Shown here one piece after another: positions 9,480 to 28,712 of a DNA stretch of 64,000 bases (its first letter is position 1; each line of letters starts with the position of its first letter). The DNA comes from Octopus vulgaris (taxonomy: Eukaryota). Under the pieces are notes generated by a model. It was not told where the DNA came from and searched no databases. It saw only the letters and a program-made list of their open reading frames with translations. The position numbers and the translations under genes were made by a program. The DNA is taken from positions 72,354,001 through 72,418,000 of the forward strand of contig OX597826.1 in NCBI GenBank assembly GCA_951406725.2, given 5' to 3'.

Positions 9480-10070
9480 TATAAGTGCTCCGTGACCACA
9501 GTAAAGGCTGTAAGACATGACATGGACAGCTGCGATGGAAACCACAAAGCTATGACCAGCTGCAAGGTGATGGTCTTTGGGTGTGTCTTGAGGTAGAGTG
9601 ATGCCATGCCTCCTTACATCTTTGAACAGGGCGTTAGGCTCAATTCAGATGGCTGTGTGAAGCTGTTGGAGAGGGTTGCTGCTGGAAAGCCATATGTGTA
9701 GCAGCAGGATTTGGCTCCTTGCCATACCTCAGGAAATAGTCAGAAGTGGTTGTCGGAGAATTTCTATGACTTCCCCAGCCCCTAGTGTCTGGCCTCCTAA
9801 TTCCCCTGATTGTAATCCCATGGATTACTGTGGGTGGAGGTGTGTCTGAGAAAGACACCAACCATTCAGCATGCAACACCAAGGCTGAGCTGGTGACCAA
9901 GAGCAAGTGGGGGGTATTTGAAAATCTTCCCTGAGAGACAGTGAGGAATGCATATGCTGGGTTCCAGAGCTGTCTTGAGGCCATGGTGGAAGTGGAAGCT
10001 GGTTTTCTCCCAGCCATTATCTAGTTAATGTTTTTTTGATTTTTAAAATACTTTTATTTTTAGATGAAAT
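9480..10070 (+). mobile_element. Tc1/mariner-superfamily maT (DD37D) transposase fossil
   Basis: VMVFGCV, KPYV*QQDLAPCHTS...WLSENFYDF, frameshift, VWPPNSPDCNPMDY; 37 residues between the 2nd and 3rd Asp. Confidence 0.8.
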
Positions 10071-10073
10071 ATT

Positions 10074-10364
10074 GTGGATTTGGTAGACGGAAACTGAAAG
10101 AAGCCCGTCGTATATATGTATATATATATATATATATGCGTGTGTGTGTTTGTGTGTCTGTTTGTCCCCCTAGCATTGCTTGACAACCGATGCTGGTGTG
10201 TTTATGTCCCCGTTACTTAGCGGTTCGGCAAAAGAGACCGATAAAATAAGTACTGGACTTGCAAAAGAATAAGTCCTGGGGTCGAGTTGCTCGATTAAAG
10301 GCGGTGCTCCAGCATGGCCGCAGTCAAATGACTGAAACAAGTAAAAGAGTAAAGAGTAAAAGAG
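10074..10364 (+). mobile_element. SINE family 1, 3' two-thirds
   Basis: gtggatttggtagacggaaactg...taaaagagt tail. Confidence 0.85.
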
Positions 10365-10625
10365 TATTGTGTTTTCTTTTCCTTTTATGTACAACAAGTG
10401 TGTGTACAGTGGTTCCTGTGTGTAGAGTGGTTCCTGTGTGTACAGTTAAATGTACGATTGGTTCCGTATTAACATAATGTAATGCATAGTCCCTCTCAAC
10501 TGTTGTGCATCTGCATCCAAATGCACTATGAACACACATTGCAGAGGATGTAGCCCTAATGGCAAAATGTGTATGGAACAGATGGCATAAACTGCCTGTT
10601 GTGTTAATCAACCCCCCCCCTCTCG

Positions 10626-10674
<49 letters not shown>

Positions 10675-10677
10675 GAT

Positions 10678-10981
10678 GTGGAGACGCAATGGCCCAGTGG
10701 TTAGGGCAGCGGACTCGCGGTCGTAGGATCGCGGTTTCGATTCCCAGACCAAGTGTTATGAGTGTTTATTGAGCAAAAACACCTAAAGCTCCACGAGGCT
10801 CTGGCAGGGGGTGGTGGCGATTGCTGCTGTACTCTTTCGCCGCAGTTTTCTCTCGCTCTTTCTTCTGTTGGCCTGCTCGCCTAGCCAGCGGGGTGGTGTC
10901 ATTCGAAGGCTAAAACAATGCGAAGCGCATTGTGACCAGCGATGTGTAGCAACATCTGATAGCCTGGTCTGTCACAGTGAT
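10678..10981 (+). mobile_element. SINE family 3 (diverged relatives near 16210-16440 and 51805-52065 minus)
   Basis: Colinear with 8983-9289. Confidence 0.85.
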
Positions 10982-11697
10982 ATATATATATATAATGATA
11001 GTTGTCCACTTGTGACTGAGGAGGGCCATCACTGGCCATTGTCCATGCAGAGTGTCAACAATATCTGTGCATGAGATTATTGCACTTGTGGCCAGCTTAA
11101 CTCGGATTCACTCCTACAGCTTCCATGCTCGCTTTGGTGCCCTCCTACTCATCCTCACTGGCGATTGCACAAACTAAAATTTTAGATCCAATGTCTTGCA
11201 CATCTCACAGATCCTCTCCACTCCATTGGTATGATCCAGAGACACGCCAGGGTGAGATATCCAGTGCCAATAGGGTTGCAGGCTCAGGAATGTGAGAATG
11301 CCATGATCTCAGCACAAGCACTAGATCCCTGAAATGTTCACACACACACACACACATACACATACATATGAAAGAATAATTCAGATTAGATTTTGGTTCT
11401 TTTTCTTAACCTGATTCAACACATAGTTGTTGAATATCAAGAAAGTATATTGAGAATTGCAATCTCCTCTGTGAATTTGTCACTGCTGGGAATATGTCTT
11501 TCTGTTAGGGTGTTGGATCTTTAATGTCACAAGCTGTGGCTGGCTAAGCACCAATTTTCGGAGCCCCTTATACTTTTACTATCATAAAAGTTGAAGTATT
11601 TTAAGAAACTGGTTTTTAGTTTGTAATTTTCTTTGGCTGTTTGAAATATTTGTACTGAATTCTAAATATGCATTTCCCTTTTCTTTGCCACTTGTAG

Positions 11698-11889
11698 GTA
11701 TTTTGTGTTACTATTATTGCCATAGCTGTTCCTGTATTAGTAGCAGGATCATTGTACAGTATGACAAGTGAAGACAGTCCAATAATGACTACCCCACCAC
11801 CTCAGCTACCCCCAGTTTATCCCCAGGACAATGTGCAAATGTTACAAAATTTTAACAGCATTATTAAGACTTTACTTACTAGCTACTAA
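11698..11889 (+). pseudogene. Tandem duplicate of coding exon 1 (acceptor and ATG kept, donor lost)
   Basis: 12 substitutions and no indels over 153 nt versus 8746-8898; reads to TAA 11887-11889. Confidence 0.9.
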
Positions 11890-12654
11890 GTTTGTTGAAA
11901 TAGTAGTTAGTACAAACTTTGTAAGAGATATATTAGTATTTAGTATCTAATACGTTGCACAATTCAACACATGCCAGGTCATTGACTCCTTTTACTGGAG
12001 ATCAATTTATTAGCATTTGGACTGCCCACCTCACCTACATTTTTCCTAGAGACATTGACCTAAGCTGGCTATCAGATACCACTATCACTAGGTTAGAAGA
12101 ACCTTCAAAGATTGTACCTAAGTGCTCTTCTGCTTTTAACTAATTCATTTAAAAGAAAAAGAGAGAATTTATATGCTAATTAGATTCTTATTGTTTTTAA
12201 TGATATTGCAATTGAAAGAATAAATGAGTTTATTGTATATTTTTTACCTGAGGAAGAGGAGGGAAGCTAGCTGTTTTGAAGTATAAATAAAAGATTTAAA
12301 ATATTCAATATCACCCTGCTCAAGATTGCCCCTGGTTCAATGATACAAGCTCCCTGTTTTAAAATATCATTTTAATTTCTGTTCCTAACACTAGCTTAAA
12401 AACGACTGAGTTATTTTACTAAATTTTTCATTATTTTCAAAATAAATTGAAATAAAGATAGTGAGTTTCAGCAGAAATATCATAACAAAAGAGTTAATGA
12501 ATTTGCTATTTATTTTATAGACTGTCCATGTATCTGCAAAGTCGTAAATATATTACAAGGACTTTGTATAGGAGAGTAGTGAGTAATTTTCAGAAATAAA
12601 AGACAATGTTAATCTATGCGAAATTTGAGTGTGTTGCAACCTAATAGACTCTTT

Positions 12655-13206
12655 CATCATTATCATCATCGTTTAACGTCCGTTTTCCGTGCTAGCATGG
12701 ATTGGATGGTTCGACTGGGGTCTGGGAAGCCAGGAGGCTGCACCAGGCTCCAGTCTGATCTGGCAGTGTTTCTACAGCTGGATGCCCTTCCTAACGCCAA
12801 CCACTCCGTGAGTGTAGTGGGTGCGTTTTACGTGCCAGGGGAGGCTGGCAGTGGCCACGATCGGTTGGTGCTTTTTACATGCCACCGGTACAGAAGCCAG
12901 TCGAGGCGACACTGGCATCAGCCACATTTGGATGGTGCTTTTTACGTGCCACCGGCACATGTATCACCAATTTCCATTTGATATCTATTTTGATATTGAT
13001 GTACTTGACTCAATAGGTCTCCTCAAGCACAGCAGGTCATGTTCCACCAGCACAGAAGCCAGTCAAGGCAGCGCTGGCACCGGCCATGTTCGGATGGTGC
13101 TTTTTACGTGCCACCGGCACAGGTATCATAACTACAATTTCCATTTGATATTTATTTTGATGTTGATGTACTTGACGCGATAGGTCTCCTCAAGCACAGC
13201 AGGTCA
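12655..13206 (-). mobile_element. (GAT)n-tailed RTE-type SINE/LINE 3' end with internal GC-rich tandem units
   Basis: Reverse complement of ggcgttaggaagggcatccagctgtagaaac...gacgttaaacgatgatgat; repeated gtgcttttacgtgccaccggcac. Confidence 0.8.
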
Positions 13207-13312
13207 CCCTACAATATGTTATCCTGTCCCCCCCCCAGCTCCTTTGCCCTTCCTGTTGCTCATTTTTCAATATTTGATGTTAATGTCTTATGCTTTGTGT
13301 CTTCTTGTACAG

Positions 13313-13868
13313 GCTATTAATTCAATGGAAGAGAAAGGCATGCAGGATGACCCTCGATACTCTCACCTAGTGATAATTGCAAATCGAACCAAGGGAGTGG
13401 TGAGTGGAGGAGGTAATGGCACTGCAAGTGGTCCTGGATCACAGGGTTCGACAGGCCCTCCTAATATGGGTGGCCCAGGCCAAGGAATGGGTATGAGTGG
13501 ACCGGGCATGACACCCGGAAACAATATGAATGGACCAAATATGAACAACTCAAACAGCAATATGTCGAACCCTAATATGGCCGGACCAAATGGTGGAAAC
13601 ATGAACAGTGGAATGGGGGGTAATCCTTCATCTGGTACCGGTGTAGGTGCTGCTGGATCAGGTAACCCACCCAATGTCTATGCCAATATGCAAGGACCTA
13701 ATTCATGTGGTCCACCTGGGATGAATGGGCCGGCCATGAACAATATGTCCGGACCTAATAATGCTATGGTTGCAAACATGAATTCCAATATGAATGGTCC
13801 ACCCGGACCCCCAAATTCCTCTGGAGCTAATCAGCAAGCTATTGAAACCAGTGAACAAGGACCACAAG
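13313..13868 (+). CDS. SMARCA4: Exon 2: AINSMEEKGMQDDPRYS plus G/N/M/P-rich low-complexity region
   Basis: tacag acceptor, caag|gtaagt donor (phase 1); MEEKG..DDPRY is the Brahma N-terminal motif. Confidence 0.93.
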
Positions 13869-13886
13869 GTAAGTGTTTATTTTTAT

Positions 13887-13931
<45 letters not shown>

Positions 13932-14118
13932 GTTCGCCATGTTGGACCACTGAACTCAACATGTCTTTTTTTTTCATTCTCTCCCTATTTGTTTCCTTTC
14001 TGTTGAAGAGTGTAGGCTTGAATGTAAAAGATTTTTCCATTTTTCCCAACCGTCAAACTAATGCACTTGCTTGTTGTTCCTATACCTGTCTTTGTCTTTG
14101 TTATATATACATATATAT

Positions 14119-14156
<38 letters not shown>

Positions 14157-14159
<3 letters not shown>

Positions 14160-14377
14160 TAAAAGCGGTAAGATAACAAAAGAAAGAAAGAGACCTCAAT
14201 ATTATGTAAATAGAGGAAATTTATCTGTAAAATAATATGTAACAATTATTCGGTAGCCAAGATAAAACTCTGAGTTTCGGATGCCGAGGTGGAAATCCAC
14301 AACACCATCTCGTCGGTTATCTGGCCAGATAACCGAAGAGATGGAGTTTTATCTTGGCTACCGAATAATTGTCACAT

Positions 14378-14384
<7 letters not shown>
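14157..14384. mobile_element. (TA)n-embedded fold-back element with a hammerhead-like motif on the minus strand (14260-14322)
   Basis: Outer arms 14228-14270 and 14344-14384; inner palindrome 14305-14344. Minus strand reads agataa-CCGACGA-stemII-GAAAC tcaga GTT-ttatct. Confidence 0.65.
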
Positions 14385-14414
<30 letters not shown>

Positions 14415-15246
14415 ACATAGTGTAATTCAAGAAACCTGAGTCATAAAATATAAATAACTTTACAGATATTTATTTTAAAGTTTTAATTGTGCTTTTGTTA
14501 TCTTGAAACATAATTGCATATCTTAAAGTCTTTGAGATGCTGTACCACTATTCTTCAGCTACCAAGAAAACTTCTTCTCCAAATTGTTATGTATATGTCA
14601 GTAGCTTATTAAGATGTAGCAATAACAGCTACCTTGATGTGTTTTATATTAGTTGAAATATATATAATGTAGATAACTCTACAGCTATTTATTTGAAAGC
14701 CTTTTTTGTGGAGAGAATAATTGAGTAACTTACAGATCATTTTTTGGGGGACAGTTGTCCCTTGTCAGAGATGTGCCACAGAGAACTTTTAATCTAAATT
14801 ACTCTAGTTTTTGTGTATGTGTATTTTTAAAATTTTCCTTTGATTTTCTTGTTTTATTTAAAAAAAAAATTATTGATGTATTCAGTTGGTGTTTGCAATA
14901 CAATTTAACTAAAAGGTGTTTACATAAAACTAACACAAACTTCTTGCTTGAAAACTTCCTTTAATTAAAGGTAATAACAGGTAGTGAAATTAAACTTGGT
15001 ATTAAAATTACTGGTGCAGGAAGGCACCGAGCTGGCAGAATCGTAAGCATGCTGGGCAAAATGTATAGTGGCATTTCATTCGTTTTTACACTCTGAGTTC
15101 AAATCCTACCTAGATTGACTTTGTCTTTTATCCTTTCGGGGGTCAGTAAAATAAGTACCAGTTGAGCACTGGGGTCGATGTATTTGACTTTACACCCTCC
15201 CCGGAATTAGTGGCCTTGTGCCAAAGTTTGAAACCAAAATTACTAG

Positions 15247-15657
15247 GTGCCAGTATGGCTGTGTGGTAAGAAGTTTGCATTGCAACCACATGGTTCTGGG
15301 TTCAGTCCCACTGCATTGCATCTTCGGCAAATGTCTTCTATTATACGCTTGGGTCAACCAAATTCTCGTGAGTGGATTTGGTAGGCGGAAACTGAAAAAA
15401 GCCTTTAAATGATGACAATGATCACACACACGTGTGTCTTTGTGTTTGCCTCATGCCACTGTGTGAGAACTGGTGTTGGTGTGTTTACATCCCCCTAACT
15501 TACCAGTTCTGCAAAAGTGACTGATGGAATAAGTAGCAGGCTTAAAAAAAATAAAATAAAATAAAGAAAAATAAGTACGGAGCCAATTCAACTAAAATTC
15601 AGCAAGGTGGTGTCCCAGTATGGCCGCAGTCGAATGGCTGAATCATAAGATAAAAGA
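15247..15657 (+). mobile_element. SINE family 1, diverged (others near 268-570, 7666-8260, 29424-29582 minus, 29600-29760)
   Basis: Same head and tail motifs. Confidence 0.75.
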
Positions 15658-15920
15658 AAGTTATACAGAGTTGTTGTCAACTGTTGTGTTCGGTTAGATA
15701 ATATAATTGTAATATAAGGACGTCAGTGGATAGTTGTGTACCTTGATGGATTTACGATTTCTTTTCAGTGACTACAAAACAGTTATAAATCACAAAAGGG
15801 AACAAAAGTAGTACATAATAGTGGTGATATTTACGAAAATGTTTGAAGAAAATTACAAAAATAGTGTGTGTACATTATATATATGTATGTGTGTGTCTGT
15901 GTGTGTGTGTGTATATATAT

Positions 15921-16153
15921 ATTAGAGTAAGTTCTTAAATGTGATACAAGGGGGGGAAAATAGTACTTGAATGCCAGAGGTAGAGTAATATGCTTTATTA
16001 AAAAGCAGCAAAAATATCACAAAAACTGTTACTCAGAGTTTTCCATTCCCGTTCATCAGACAATTTTGTTTAGAAAACTGTCTGATGAATGGGAACGTGA
16101 AACTCTGAGTAACATTTTTTTGTGATATTTTTGCTGCTTTTTAATAAATTGTG

Positions 16154-16160
<7 letters not shown>
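15921..16160. mobile_element. (TA)n-embedded fold-back element with hammerhead motifs on both strands (Penelope-like derivative)
   Basis: About 74-bp inverted arms spanning 15994-16148, about 70-nt unique head, TA runs on both sides. Confidence 0.7.
16074..16119 (+). ncRNA. Minimal type I hammerhead ribozyme motif (Penelope-type)
   Basis: aaaactgt-CTGATGA-atg(ggaa)cgt-GAAA-c tctga g-TA-acattttt. All core nucleotides present; near-palindromic stem III ACTC-T-GAGT. Confidence 0.7.
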
Positions 16161-16197
<37 letters not shown>

Positions 16198-16465
16198 TAT
16201 ATATAAGCTAAGGCACATGGCCTAGCAGTTAGGGTGTTAGGGTGTTGCACTCACAATTGCTAGATTGTGGGTTCCTGAGCAAAACACTTTCGTGTTGCTC
16301 CTGTCCACTCAGCTGTAAATGGATAATCCTGTGACAGAATAGTCTTTCAGTCGAGGGGAATGTTAGCCTAGCTAGTGAGAGTGGATTCATTGGAAAGCTA
16401 AAACAGTGTACAGCACACTGTGGCCAGTAGTGTGTAACAACATCCTGTAGTCTGTGAGATATATT

Positions 16466-16610
16466 GCGTTAGGAAGGGCATCCAGCTGTAGAAACACTGC
16501 CAGATCAGACTGGAGCCTGGTGCAGCCTTCTGGCTTCACAGACCCCAGTTGAACCGTCCAACCCATGCTAGCATGGAAAGCGGATGCTAAATGATGATGA
16601 TGATGATGAT
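16466..16610 (+). mobile_element. (GAT)n-tailed RTE-type repeat
   Basis: Near-identical reverse complement of 12655-12800. Confidence 0.82.
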
Positions 16611-16859
16611 ATACAAGGCGGTGAGCTGGCAGAAATGTTAGCACACTGGGCGAAATGCTTAGTGGTATTTCATCTGTCTTTATGTTCTGAGTTCAAATTC
16701 CTCTGAGGTTGACTTTGCCTTTCCTCCTTTTGGGGTTGATAAATTAAGTACCAGCTGCGTATTGAGGTCGATTTAATTGATTGCCCCCTCCCCCTGCCCT
16801 AAAATTTTGGGCCTTGTGCCTAGAGTAGAAAAGAATATTGTGAGATATACATATATGTA

Positions 16860-18300
16860 TATAGTTTCCATGCTTGCTTTTCCATGTTGGCTTGTATAGA
16901 GGAGGTTTGTTTCAAAGCAGCAGCATCTCCACTCATTGTGGTCCTTTGTGAGTGCAAATATCTTGAGTTCAAACCTCACCACTTCTATGGTCTTCTTCAG
17001 TTTTCTTTCATCGGCTCCTTTCACTTTCATCTTTCGAATTTTTCCACCCAACTATCTCTCTTCATAACTTGTTCACACTTACATAGCCTTCTTTGCTTCA
17101 TGCCTAAAATACCTAAAATACCCAAGGTTTTTTCGCAACTCATTGTGCCCTGTTGTTCATGCATTCTGACTTCACGCATCCAGCAAAGCCCACTTGCTTC
17201 ATTTCTTTCTAGCCTTTACATATCCCTCACATTCTGCACCTAATGTCTTGCTAACACGATATATCACAATTTGTACAGAATTCAGTGTACTCTTCACTCA
17301 GAGAGTTGTTGTTTTGCTCCAAGTGTGTCTTAATCCAGCAGATAATATAGTCAAAGATACTCCTGTCTTGACGCTTTCATCTCATGTGTCTGGGAACATA
17401 TTTTTGTGTCCTTCCTGTTTGAAGATGGTAGGATGTGATTTGAGGGAATTTGGCAGTTATTACTAGCATACTAGTAGACTATGTAAGTGCATAGAGGCTC
17501 TGTTGTGTCCAGAGAAATAACAGCTGCTTCATCAGTTTCCACTTCATTGTTACTGAGGCTGCTCTGTTATCTCAGCACCCACCTACACTGATGAAATCAC
17601 CTTGGTAACAGAAACTACCTACTACTTTTAGCAAGTTTTCTGTGCAATTGTAAGATTTAATGTCTCATTTGCTCTCACTACTTTTGCATCTATTACATTT
17701 TGAAATCCTTCTCTGTCAGATGGCCATGGCTGGAATACTTTTTGATCAAAGGTTTCTTCAATCAGAGCTGACCTGGGACGGACTAAGCAACACCCTCATT
17801 AACTCGCACAAATAATGTATCTTAGCATGTATCTTAGTTCACCAGATAATTTCAGCATCTTGGTGACTCTCCTTCAGGCTTATATTTTCCCTGCCTTAAT
17901 ATCCTCGATGGCCTTTTCCACTGTGTAGCAGCCAACCTCAGTAACTGGATCCACTTAGAATAACCTCTTTTTCCCCCTACACATTCTCATCATCCATTAA
18001 CTGCTTATAACATCATTTCCATGCTTCTTTTTTCTTGGCGCTAGTTGATGAGGATGCACTGTATGCACTTCTCTCTTTGCAACATATGCTGGTGTCTAGC
18101 TGCTCTTTTACCTACTTGATATTGTTCCTTGCTCCCACGTATCTCTTTTGTGATCTCCAGCCTCTTTTCACCATTTCTTCCCATGTCTTACTTGGTCTTC
18201 TCCCACACATCATTTGGCACTTTCTTTTACCTCACTCTCATTCTCCTTGTTCATCTCACGTCCATACCTGCATAGTCTTCTCTCTTGCACACTACAACTC
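16860..18300 (-). mobile_element. Fragmented RTE-clade LINE remnants
   Basis: Minus-strand GRRPSKTWEEMVK (about 18160-18205) and KKTIEVVRFELKIFALTKDHNEWR resemble RTE ORF C-termini. Confidence 0.55.
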
Positions 18301-18510
18301 ACTTTTTACTTTTTTAACTCTTTTACTTGTTTCAGTCATTTGACTGTGGCCATGCTGGAGCACTGCCTTTAGTCGAGCAAACCGACCCCGGAACTTATTC
18401 TTTGTAAGCCCAGTACTTATTCTATCGGTCTCTTTTGCCAAACCACTAAGTGACGGGGACGTAAACACACCAGCATCGGTTGTCAGGCAATGCTAGGGGG
18501 ACAAACACAG

Positions 18511-18565
<55 letters not shown>

Positions 18566-18730
18566 TACGACAGGCTTCTTTCAGTTTCCGTCTACCAAAT
18601 CCACTCACAAAGCATTGGTCAGCCCAGCGCTATTGCAGAAGACACTTGCCCAAGATGCCACGCAGTGGGACTGAACCCTGAACCATGTGGTTGGTTAGCA
18701 AGCTACTTACCACACAGCCACTCCTGCGTC
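18301..18730 (-). mobile_element. SINE family 1
   Basis: Reverse complement of 41640-42051. Confidence 0.88.
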
Positions 18731-20104
18731 TATGCAGAGATCTTTTTTTTTTCTATAATTTTCTAACTAGGAAGATAACATTAGTGGTAGATTATGCAAC
18801 AGATCTGAACTGCATGTCAACTAAGCTGATTCTCTTCCTACTCTGTTGTATATAACTCTGTTTCTTACACAACCAGGTCCTTAAGCTTCTTGCTCTTATA
18901 ACATCTCCTTTGTCCCTGTAGCAGTTTTTACAATACTGTTACACCTGTTGTTAAAAAAAAGACACCTGTGCTCTCTGATTATGAGAGTGACAGGCTAGTA
19001 ACTCTCATAGCCAATCAGGTGTTGTGCTCTGTTGTTCACACACTCTAACATTATGCATTCTACCCCTTTGTATTGTTTGTAATGTGAAGATCTGATGAAT
19101 TCAAGCAAATATCTCTCGAAAAGGCTCTTGCCTTGCTTTCAGTAGGAAGTAACTTGAAATCATTTGATTTAATCAGCTTCTAATTGCATCGCTTCTTGTA
19201 CTTTATGATTCACTATATAGTGATACCGTGTGTATTATACCTAGTCTCATCATCCGATTCAAGTAACCTACACCTCTTGTATTATTTGTAATTGAGATTT
19301 ACAGTGAACCATTTCCATTTGGTGGTGAGGGAGAATTCAGTTTGCCACTTTTTGAAATATGTGGTCACTGGCAATTTTCCTTTTTACTATTGGGTTGTTT
19401 TATTATTTCTTTTTAACTTTGTTTTTAATGTTTTTAATATCCAACATAGCAGCTCATAATTATCCCTGTGGCTCACATGTATGTTAACACGGCTTCTAGT
19501 TTTTCCATAAAAAGTTAGACTGAATCACATCATTCAGGAAAAATGTTTATTTCTGTATCACATTCTACCCACAACCGTATAGCTTTTTCTACTTTGTATA
19601 AAAGTCAGATCTAACAGTAACCCCTGTCTATGTCATATATTTCCATAATTTTTATACCCCAACCTGAAGTGTGAATGTTGGTGGAGCTTTCATAACCTTG
19701 CATATCGTACCTGTACTCAGATATTTCTTTGTATTCCATTTGGTGTAAGTTTCCTTTAGACAATGACCAAGACAGGTGTTATCTGTAACTAACTGACCAA
19801 AGTTATTTCCTTGCATATTACTGTATAACTGATGTTATACAAATGCAAATATTGTTATAATTCCAAAAGCTGGAAACATAGGAGGTCTTTGAAGGGCACT
19901 TGTGCTCCAGTTAATTTAATACTCCTTGCTAGCTTTCAAATGCCCATTATTATAGTTATAGAGAATGAGTATAGCTGATTGATTTTTACTCTTTCAAAAT
20001 TATGGCTGGGTTCAGTTTCTTTGCAGAGTTTGCAAGGAAATTTAAAAAAAAAGATCTATGTTCAATTCTGTTACTTTTATGACCATTATTGTTGCCCAAA
20101 TCTG

Positions 20105-20450
20105 CATCATCATCATCATCATTTAACGTCCGTTCTCCATGCTAGCATGGGTTGGACGGTTCGACCGGGGATCTGGAAAGCCAGAAGGCTGCACCAGGCT
20201 CCAGTCTGATCTGGCAGTGTTTCTACAGCTGGATTCCCTTCCTAACGCCAACCACTCCGTGAGTGTAGTGGGTGCTTTTTACATGCCACCTGCACAGGTG
20301 TCAGGCGAGGCTGGCAACGGCCACGGGCTGATTGGTGCATTTTACGTGCCACCGGCACGGAAGCCAGTCGAGGCAGCACTGGCATTGGCCACGATTTGGA
20401 TGGTGCTTTTTACGTACCACCAGTCCAGGGGTCCTGGCATCTGCCGGGTG
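20105..20450 (-). mobile_element. (GAT)n-tailed RTE-type repeat
   Basis: Same family. Confidence 0.82.
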
Positions 20451-21618
20451 CCAATAAATGTGGAAGAAATAGTGCAAAAAGAAAAAAACTAACAGAACAT
20501 TCAATAAAAGTTATAAAGATAGCAGATGACACAAGGTCAACGTTTAACCTTTTTGCATGCAACACCACATCATTAATGTAGTAATGAGATCCTTGTTGAT
20601 GCTTCCTACTTTATATATATATCTGTGGCCCTTTGTTACCAGCCGGACTACCTAACATTACTTTTATCATGGTGGGCTGGCTGGACCGTTAGCACATGGC
20701 ATGAGATGCTTACAGGGATTTCTTATGGCTTCACATTCTGAGGTTGATTTTGTTTTATGTCCTATTTCCTTTTGGGGTTGATAAAATAACTACCTGTTAA
20801 GCATTAGGGTCAATAAAATCAAGTTAGACCTTACCCCAGATTGTAAAGCTTTTGCCTATTGTTATCATGATCATCATTGAAAATGGATGTTAAAATGCTG
20901 GTTGTGGTGATAGAGGTAGCAACAATGTCAAGTGGTTTGATAACACAGGACCATGGGTAGGTAAGAAAGTAGGAGCAAGAGACGTGGGTTGATAATGACA
21001 AGATTAGTGAGTTTACATGTGTATACGAAAATAATAGAAAGAAGAGGAATAATGAAGATAAAGATAGTCAATTAGAAATTGAACTCACATTGTTAAGATG
21101 ATTGCTCTTTGTGTTATTAGATATTGGACCGTTCGCTCATGAGTCTGGAGTATTTATTCTTGTGTGTGTGTAGCAAATTAGCATTGAATTACGAAAATGA
21201 ATGAAATGAGAAATTAGGAAAGCTTCTAACAATGCAGAAAGTCTAAAAGACCTTTATATTTCAAGCACAAATGCCTACCTTCAAAAGAAACAGTTAAAGA
21301 AATGTCTATTTACATAGATCCTGCTATTTTAGATAGTCCGGTGTTTGAGTCAGTAGCAGCATTGGATTTCTCTGGGAATGTGCAACTCATGTCTTGGTGT
21401 TTGCTTTTCATATAGTCCCTTGTGATAGAGAGGTTGGGAAGTGTGGTTAAGGTGCTGGATCCGTTTGTCACTTTAGACCATTTTGTAGCCATTGTATTGC
21501 ATTCTTGAGTTAAAGTATATTATCTTTACTTTACTCCTTTTACACAAAAAGAATAATATGTAACCATAAGAAATATTTGATGTTTGATAATATATAAATT
21601 TATGTATATGTATTTCAG

Positions 21619-28538: not shown

Positions 28539-28712
28539 GCTGAAGATGAAGAAGGCTACAGGAAACTTATTGATCAGAAGAAAGATAAGCGTTTGGCCTA
28601 TTTACTACAGCAAACTGATGAATACGTGTCTAATCTAACAAAACTTGTTGTACAACATAAGATCGAACAAAAGAAAAATAAAAAGAAGAAGAAGAAAAAG
28701 AAGAAGGCTACT
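28539..28712 (+). CDS. SMARCA4: Exon 8: post-HSA ([29 protein letters not shown]) plus poly-Lys
   Basis: 174 nt, act|gtgagt donor. Confidence 0.95.

Follow-up and report, generated by a model that had tools for sequence, protein, structure and literature searches.

The element at positions 14,157 to 14,384 of the window (the 64,000-nucleotide stretch of Octopus vulgaris DNA analyzed here) is best explained as two 3′ ends of a Hydra-clade Penelope-like element (PLE), joined head to head within a (TA)n microsatellite. We place the probability of the entire explanation at roughly 0.85: the structure likely arose in one abortive insertion and is likely inert now, the slip that shortened one arm was blind to the host gene, and the hammerhead motif with its U4C core was inherited. 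Truncated PLE insertions number in the thousands, and this intronic one is of little consequence alone. The tail, the inversion, the (TA)n target and the hammerhead layout are all known already for Hydra PLEs; what is new is the family.

The fold-back and its parent family

The features relevant to this explanation are as follows.

14,102 to 14,156, no strand: left (TA)n target microsatellite with CA interruptions (from the sequence)
14,157 to 14,324, minus strand: tail-bearing pLTR arm, assigned as a Hydra PLE 3′ end, with the 3′ terminus of the element at 14,157 (by alignment to an ORF-bearing unit)
14,157 to 14,227, minus strand: unmirrored head of 71 nt, equated with the PLE tail (by palindrome mapping)
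14,260 to 14,322, minus strand: type I hammerhead motif in the Hydra layout with a U4C core, predicted to cut at 14,266/14,265 (by motif)
14,322 to 14,327, no strand: self-complementary TGGCCA at the inversion junction (from the sequence; the exact 20-nt centre occurs at 68 genomic places)
14,325 to 14,384, plus strand: inverted, tail-less pLTR arm that keeps CCGAAGA (14,333 to 14,339) and has a 35-nt deletion at 14,343/14,344
14,385 to 14,411, no strand: right (TA)n target microsatellite (from the sequence)
13,869 to 21,590, plus strand: intronic stretch of a Brahma/SMARCA2-4-like gene with a GT donor at 13,869, bounds approximate and small exons possible within it (from flanking exons)
15,921 to 16,156, no strand: two pLTRs of a second Hydra family in fold-back arrangement, with a full core on the plus strand at 16,082 and G12 lost in the minus arm

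The original prediction described the element as (TA)n, a head of about 70 nt, a palindrome and (TA)n again. Palindrome mapping bears this out, placing the centre between 14,324 and 14,325 after 71 bases that have no mirror. The head is 71 nt here rather than the approximately 62 nt typical of the family because the other arm ends earlier. The fold-back is not a chance arrangement, since its folding energy (14,157 to 14,384) is −80.9 kcal/mol (z −13, equaled by 0 of 200 shuffles) and since the element has thousands of genomic copies, compared to none for a reversed control pattern. The minus-strand reading proposed for 14,322 to 14,260 is exact: agataa / CCGACGA / gatg..gtgg-attt-ccac..catc-c / GAAAC / tcaga / GTT / ttatct. 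Likewise, the plus arm retains agataa-CCGAAGA-gatg, and its 35-nt deletion takes away GAAAC as well as most of stem II.

Plus-strand exons between 21.6 and 54.8 kb encode QLQ, HSA, SNF2, Helicase_C and Bromodomain domains, and positions 13,184 to 55,852 (plus) carry a Brahma/SMARCA2-4-like gene whose long Gly/Asn/Pro/Met-rich exon ends at 13,868. Pfam returned no hit in this upstream exon, which presumably resembles a Brahma N-terminus. Because the host gene lies on the plus strand, the deleted arm is the sense arm.

A DNA search of the octopus's own genome (2.8 Gb) yielded 1,036 candidates. A pattern search of the same genome yielded 3,209 exact matches to the hammerhead start with non-palindromic upstream DNA, many of which are tandems or inverted pairs 0.7 to 3.5 kb apart. 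Eighteen such stretches were inspected, and these contain tandem 2.58-kb units, inverted pairs and open frames of up to 717 codons. Specifically, the tandem unit is 2,580 bp long and carries a single ORF of 708 amino acids from its first Met; the 717-codon open frame stops approximately 200 bp upstream of the hammerhead, just before the pLTR. The long arm of the window element aligns to the 3′ end of one ORF-bearing unit (L091) with 156 identities, 9 mismatches and 5 gap positions. An association with Penelope ORFs, which had been proposed as a check, is therefore present in the form of an element 3′ end that is continuous with 2.58-kb ORF-bearing units. The young, ORF-intact subfamily has a mean pairwise difference of 2.6%, and the parent unit was found as contigs in 20 of 24 sequencing-run rows, with no RNA run listed among those that contain it. 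At G000:C1:57208000-57224000 (L091/L092), at least six 2.58-kb units with several ORFs open are arranged in two opposed blocks, which is likely a recent insertion.

The parent protein (P0001) carries the motifs RWK (46), DKT (123), YKDD, CxCx5C (566), CxxC (669) and CxH (700), and a motif search revealed no CCHH-type pattern in it. We assign the parent to Hydra because this set corresponds to the features given for that clade in section 11 of PMC8557442, namely RWK, DKT in place of DKG, CxCx5C, CxxC, CxH and no CCHH. By eye, P0001 also follows Hydra-1_Obim closely, with long identical blocks (protein in the supplement of PMC8557442). Judged from these motifs and the comparison by eye, the parent is a Hydra-clade Penelope-like retrotransposon. 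In Pfam, GIY-YIG scored below the cut-off (E 0.014) in one of two copies, and no RT family matched the parent protein or the protein of the second family. A motif-like IIY...YVG is present at position 585 of P0001. A PDB sequence search with P0001 returned nothing relevant.

The neighboring element at 15,921 had been described as unrelated in sequence except for GAAACTC-w-GAGT, and indeed the sole local alignment between the two is 11 to 12 nt at this string. The shared string is, by its sequence, the usual Hydra stem III and a hallmark of the clade; the stem III of Penelope-3_HM is identical (actc a gagt t; PMC8557442). The arm of the 15,921 element is approximately 81% identical to the pLTR of a second family, which has 3.36-kb tandem units, a 727-codon ORF, a 3′ region of about 1 kb and at least 4,000 hammerhead matches. 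Its protein is 45% identical to that of the first family and has the same motifs. This ORF link comes from loci L362, L363, L366, L409 and L410, the ORF remnant in L331 being insufficient alone. Young copies of the second family are seen in L409 (G000:C1:64214000-64223000) and L410, and the unit is slightly above the "<3 kb" described for Hydra. A further CTGATGA...GAAAC string is present at window position 17,588 (plus) in the same host gene, and one at 28,540 is coding sequence.

Two elements of one design therefore represent two Hydra families. The proposals that the elements are PLE-derived, target (TA)n and carry a hammerhead-type motif all stand, but the suggestion that they define a new class of non-coding fold-back retroelements is not supported, as both are truncated inverted insertions of coding Hydra PLE families.

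The deleted arm and the origin of the inversion

The exact 20-nt centre of the window element is found at 68 genomic places, compared to 3,222 matches to the arm. Fifty of these 68 places were examined, and exclusion of L188 as a duplicate of L187 leaves 49 same-centre loci. Internal deletions of at least 8 nt affect 10 tail-bearing arms and 9 short arms at these loci, with one locus affected in both (hand count). The 35-nt deletion in the window locus (L241) joins two 5-mers that match at four of five letters. L244 (short arm) and L245 (tail-bearing arm) have each lost 35 nt in this same register, with a shift of 2 nt. The family form has no such deletion, which rules out that it is a feature of the family consensus. 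Deletions are present in 19 of 98 arms of perfect palindromes versus 4 of 51 non-palindromic arms of similar divergence (Fisher p 0.09), and an effect of the palindrome on deletion rate is suggested. These are hand counts, used in preference to an automated count (21/98 versus 5/51) that took in the truncations L182, L195, L222 and L288 and left out L226.

The original prediction attributed loss of the sense-strand core to selection against cutting of the host pre-mRNA. According to this alternative, the element has the same PLE origin, but its sense arm lost the 35 nt because cleavage of the Brahma-like transcript was selected against. Indeed, the deleted arm is on the strand of the host gene, the deletion removes GAAAC, and deletions occur at 18 of the 49 same-centre loci yet in both arms at only one. 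Moreover, tandem retrozymes are reported in a preprint to be depleted in Xenopus introns (10.64898/2026.07.22.740005). We nevertheless regard this explanation as improbable. Selection on the sense copy should create an excess of loci with one arm intact, and 22 are observed versus 24 expected. The core is intact in both arms, one arm or neither arm at 17, 22 and 10 of the 49 loci, respectively (strict pattern), versus 16, 24 and 9 if the arms are independent, as computed from 56 intact arms among 98. Similarly, the single double deletion compares with 1.8 expected by chance. An even division of deletions between the two types of arm would also arise under selection if insertions are randomly oriented.

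Other observations also disfavor selection. Whichever strand is transcribed, the ribozyme arm comes after its complement in the RNA, and folding computations predict that it is buried: the hammerhead fold lies 95.8 kcal/mol above the hairpin for an intact palindrome, on both strands, and 31.9 kcal/mol above it for the minus strand of the window element. The same slip is present on the tail-bearing arm of L245, and the core is U4C and belongs to the short-stem-III type, for which poor cleavage, and cleavage as dimers, has been reported (PMC4209133). Finally, the neighboring element, which resides in the same host gene and orientation, has its complete CUGAUGA core on the sense strand, the damaged one being antisense. 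The case against selection thus comes from the independent behavior of the arms, the hairpin computation and the neighboring element.

A second alternative holds that the element is a distinct, non-autonomous, retrozyme-like fold-back that is transcribed as a hairpin and mobilized in this form by Hydra proteins. The centre common to 68 places could be read in this manner, as could the agreement between arms at four subfamily-diagnostic sites (26/27, 25/27, 30/31 and 32/34, versus approximately 16 expected). However, the 49 same-centre loci are spread over seven subfamily haplotypes for which long copies are present as well, and the 6-bp palindrome of the centre occurs naturally in the parent. 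Seven haplotypes with concordant arms therefore indicate that the centre formed repeatedly, at the self-complementary 6-mer of the parent. Among the loci examined, no tandem non-coding monomers of the window sequence were present.

The range of inversion junctions likewise counts against a discrete hairpin unit. The sample comprised 83 of the first 100 tail matches (the other 17 belonged to long loci already in the set); 18 of these 83 consist of the tail alone within another repeat, and their exclusion leaves 65 insertions. By hand count, 42 of these 65 have an inverted second piece, the junctions range continuously over unit positions 822 to 2517 and extend up to 1.7 kb inward, and 33 of the 42 inverted pieces end 62 to 81 nt short of the tail end. 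Tail ends adjoin (TA)n at 56 of the 65 sampled insertions and at 34 of 40 same-centre copies. On this evidence, we judge a separately mobilized fold-back to be very unlikely. The 18 tail-only pieces (e.g. L072, L075 and L131) are 70 nt long and occupy a fixed position in another multi-copy repeat; they are spread by this host repeat, and the tail count of 4,144 is inflated by about one-fifth.

A DNA-transposon MITE, which might be imagined for a short, non-coding element with inverted repeats and TA flanks, can be dismissed given that the ends are not mutual inverses (the tail is on one side only), that lengths vary continuously, and that one arm shares 92% identity with the 3′ end of a retroelement unit that carries an ORF.

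We therefore favor a head-to-head insertion of PLE 3′ ends, which could proceed as follows. The GIY-YIG/RT protein of the parent would nick both strands of (TA)n, and the pLTR RNA would serve as template for two cDNAs, the first primed at the tail end and the second at another start approximately 62 nt upstream. Both cDNAs would stop early and join by microhomology at TGGCCA, which immediately precedes the hammerhead. The missing 35 nt may then reflect a slip between the two near-identical 5-mers, either at insertion or afterwards, irrespective of the host gene. The hammerhead motif would be inherited from the parent pLTR, with U4C having become fixed in the subfamilies that made the window copy. 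This core is predicted to be weak or inactive, and within the fold-back a long hairpin would sequester it on both strands.

Several precedents exist for such events. A tail with an inverted, 5′-truncated layout has been described for PLEs (PMC8557442, Fig. 2 legend; PMC3846280), as have opposite-strand pairs of minimal hammerheads 100 to 700 bp apart that derive from truncated copies (PMC4209133). With Poseidon PAc in vitro, RT starts at two sites spaced by the tail and both strands are extended, and insertion is not impaired by hammerhead mutations (PMC11167929). Alternatively, snap-back self-priming (PMC3846280) may have produced the inversion. The concordance of the arms fits snap-back self-priming or later arm-to-arm conversion equally as well as two-primer synthesis. 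At least three insertions (L247, L248 and the adjacent pieces of L249 and L250) have the rare CUGA in each of their arms, as expected if one template served both arms. Short re-copied pieces are present at the junctions of L247 and L249.

The hammerhead motif and its C4 core

The hammerhead components of the minus arm are CCGACGA (14,316 to 14,310), GAAAC (14,278 to 14,274) and a palindromic stem III (14,275 to 14,267). In the usual hammerhead numbering, C3, G5, A6, G8, A9, G12, A13, A14, A15.1-U16.1 and H17 are present, and U4 is replaced by C in both arms. An Rfam scan of positions 10,000 to 20,000 gave no hammerhead among 49 hits at E≤10, and for this reason the ribozyme assignment relies on the motif and on published PLE layouts. 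Among the copies, which are very alike, 93.7% of cells in the stems are paired and 0 pairs are changed on both sides, which is not above shuffles.

The presence of CCGA in both arms had been taken to mean that this variant is older than the fold-back. This proved correct, as CCGA is the family state: it is present in 98 of the first 100 matches listed of the 3,222 for the first family, and also in the ORF-intact tandem units of the young subfamily. The complete family form is CCGAAGA, and the C at position 7 of the window minus arm (CCGACGA) is private to that copy. In contrast, CUGA is found in only 74 of the 3,222 exact first-family matches. In a sister subfamily that diverges by approximately 18%, 29 of 31 arms carry CUGA and not one carries CCGA (the arms being the best hits of a CUGA query); this subfamily looks older than the young CCGA subfamily. 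Because this sister carries CUGA and every Hydra row of File S2 in PMC8557442 has ctga, C4 is likely derived. Simple CpG decay could account for CUGA in the 74 scattered matches, but was rejected as its source in the sister subfamily, in which CCGA is found in 0 of 31 arms while other CpGs persist.

Both states are also found in the second family. By hand count, one subfamily has 68 CCGA, 20 CUGA, 11 CCAA and 1 CUAA among the first 100 of 603 matches, where the CUGA, CCAA and CUAA minority has a pattern as from CpG decay. A homogeneous open-ORF subfamily has CUGA in 96 of the first 100 of at least 4,000 matches (hand count). Since both families exhibit both states, position 4 seems free to flip, with copy numbers in the thousands.

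According to PMC3088659, U4C considerably reduces activity in vitro, and metazoan PLE hammerheads cleave weakly and in dimeric form (PMC4209133). From its sequence, we predict that the hammerhead of the window family cuts weakly or not at all. Position 4 may have flipped independently in the two families, with thousands of copies of each state: from CUGA to CCGA in the youngest ORF-intact subfamily of the first, and from CCGA to CUGA in the second. If so, then either cleavage is dispensable in vivo and the fold is kept for protein binding or RT positioning, or the PLE protein rescues a weak core. We offer this only tentatively and at somewhat less than even odds, as a modest but testable lead. 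Hammerhead function in EN+ PLEs has been called unclear (PMC8557442), and a recently amplified, open-ORF family with a core change reported to lower cleavage bears on this question. A naturally matched U4/C4 pair, if true, could settle the role of PLE hammerheads.

Searches restricted to CUGANGA would miss such motifs. Our literature search, which covered sources other than PMC5785218 (PLE variants that cleave as dimers, where a U4C variant may be described), found no report of U4C for PLEs and turned up PMC3088659 and one unrelated listing; the consulted passages of PMC13282606 mention neither Hydra nor a hammerhead. A T-to-C change at CTGA is an A-to-G change on the opposite strand, and ADAR editing of fold-back RNA is thus a possible source. 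Against this source, the other subfamily differences show no A-to-G-type bias by eye.

Comparison with known systems

The nearest relative of the window family is Hydra-1_Obim. Like other members of the Hydra clade, the window family has a unit of less than 3 kb and a single ORF with RWK, DKT, CxCx5C, CxxC and CxH that lacks CCHH, and it shares the (TA)n target as well as a hammerhead close to the 3′ end, in which additional bases lie next to stem II and stem III is palindromic (PMC8557442). It is nonetheless a separate family from Hydra-1_Obim, with a different pLTR and hammerhead sequence. Unlike the Hydra rows of File S2, which have ctga, its abundant subfamilies have ccga; the family also has a longer, bulged stem II. 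A canonical CUGANGA hammerhead in the pLTR has been reported for Hydra elements but is not what defines the clade.

The layout resembles that of inverted PLE insertions described previously, including those of Adineta Penelope, with head-to-head pLTRs, a tail at one end, a palindrome at the junction and microhomology deletions (PMC8557442; PMC3846280; PMC4209133). In the window family, however, the tail is approximately 62 nt rather than 30 to 40 nt, and only the pLTR is left in the window element. The tail-spaced RT starts and both-strand priming of Poseidon PAc from the green anole would give this layout (PMC11167929). PAc belongs to another clade, and its hammerhead overlaps the start of the ORF, whereas that of the window family is in the 3′ UTR.

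Similarly, animal non-LTR retrozymes are non-coding, carry type I hammerheads and are related to PLEs (10.64898/2026.07.22.740005). Retrozymes are tandem monomers, whereas the window element is an inverted stub that in other copies is contiguous with a coding element. The tandem units that we observe are the 2.58-kb coding units, and the short copies are inverted stubs. Finally, a natural viroid hammerhead carries the same U4C core change, which is said still to permit infectivity (PMC3088659). In the viroid this is a rare variant, whereas in the window family it is the majority state among thousands of genomic copies.
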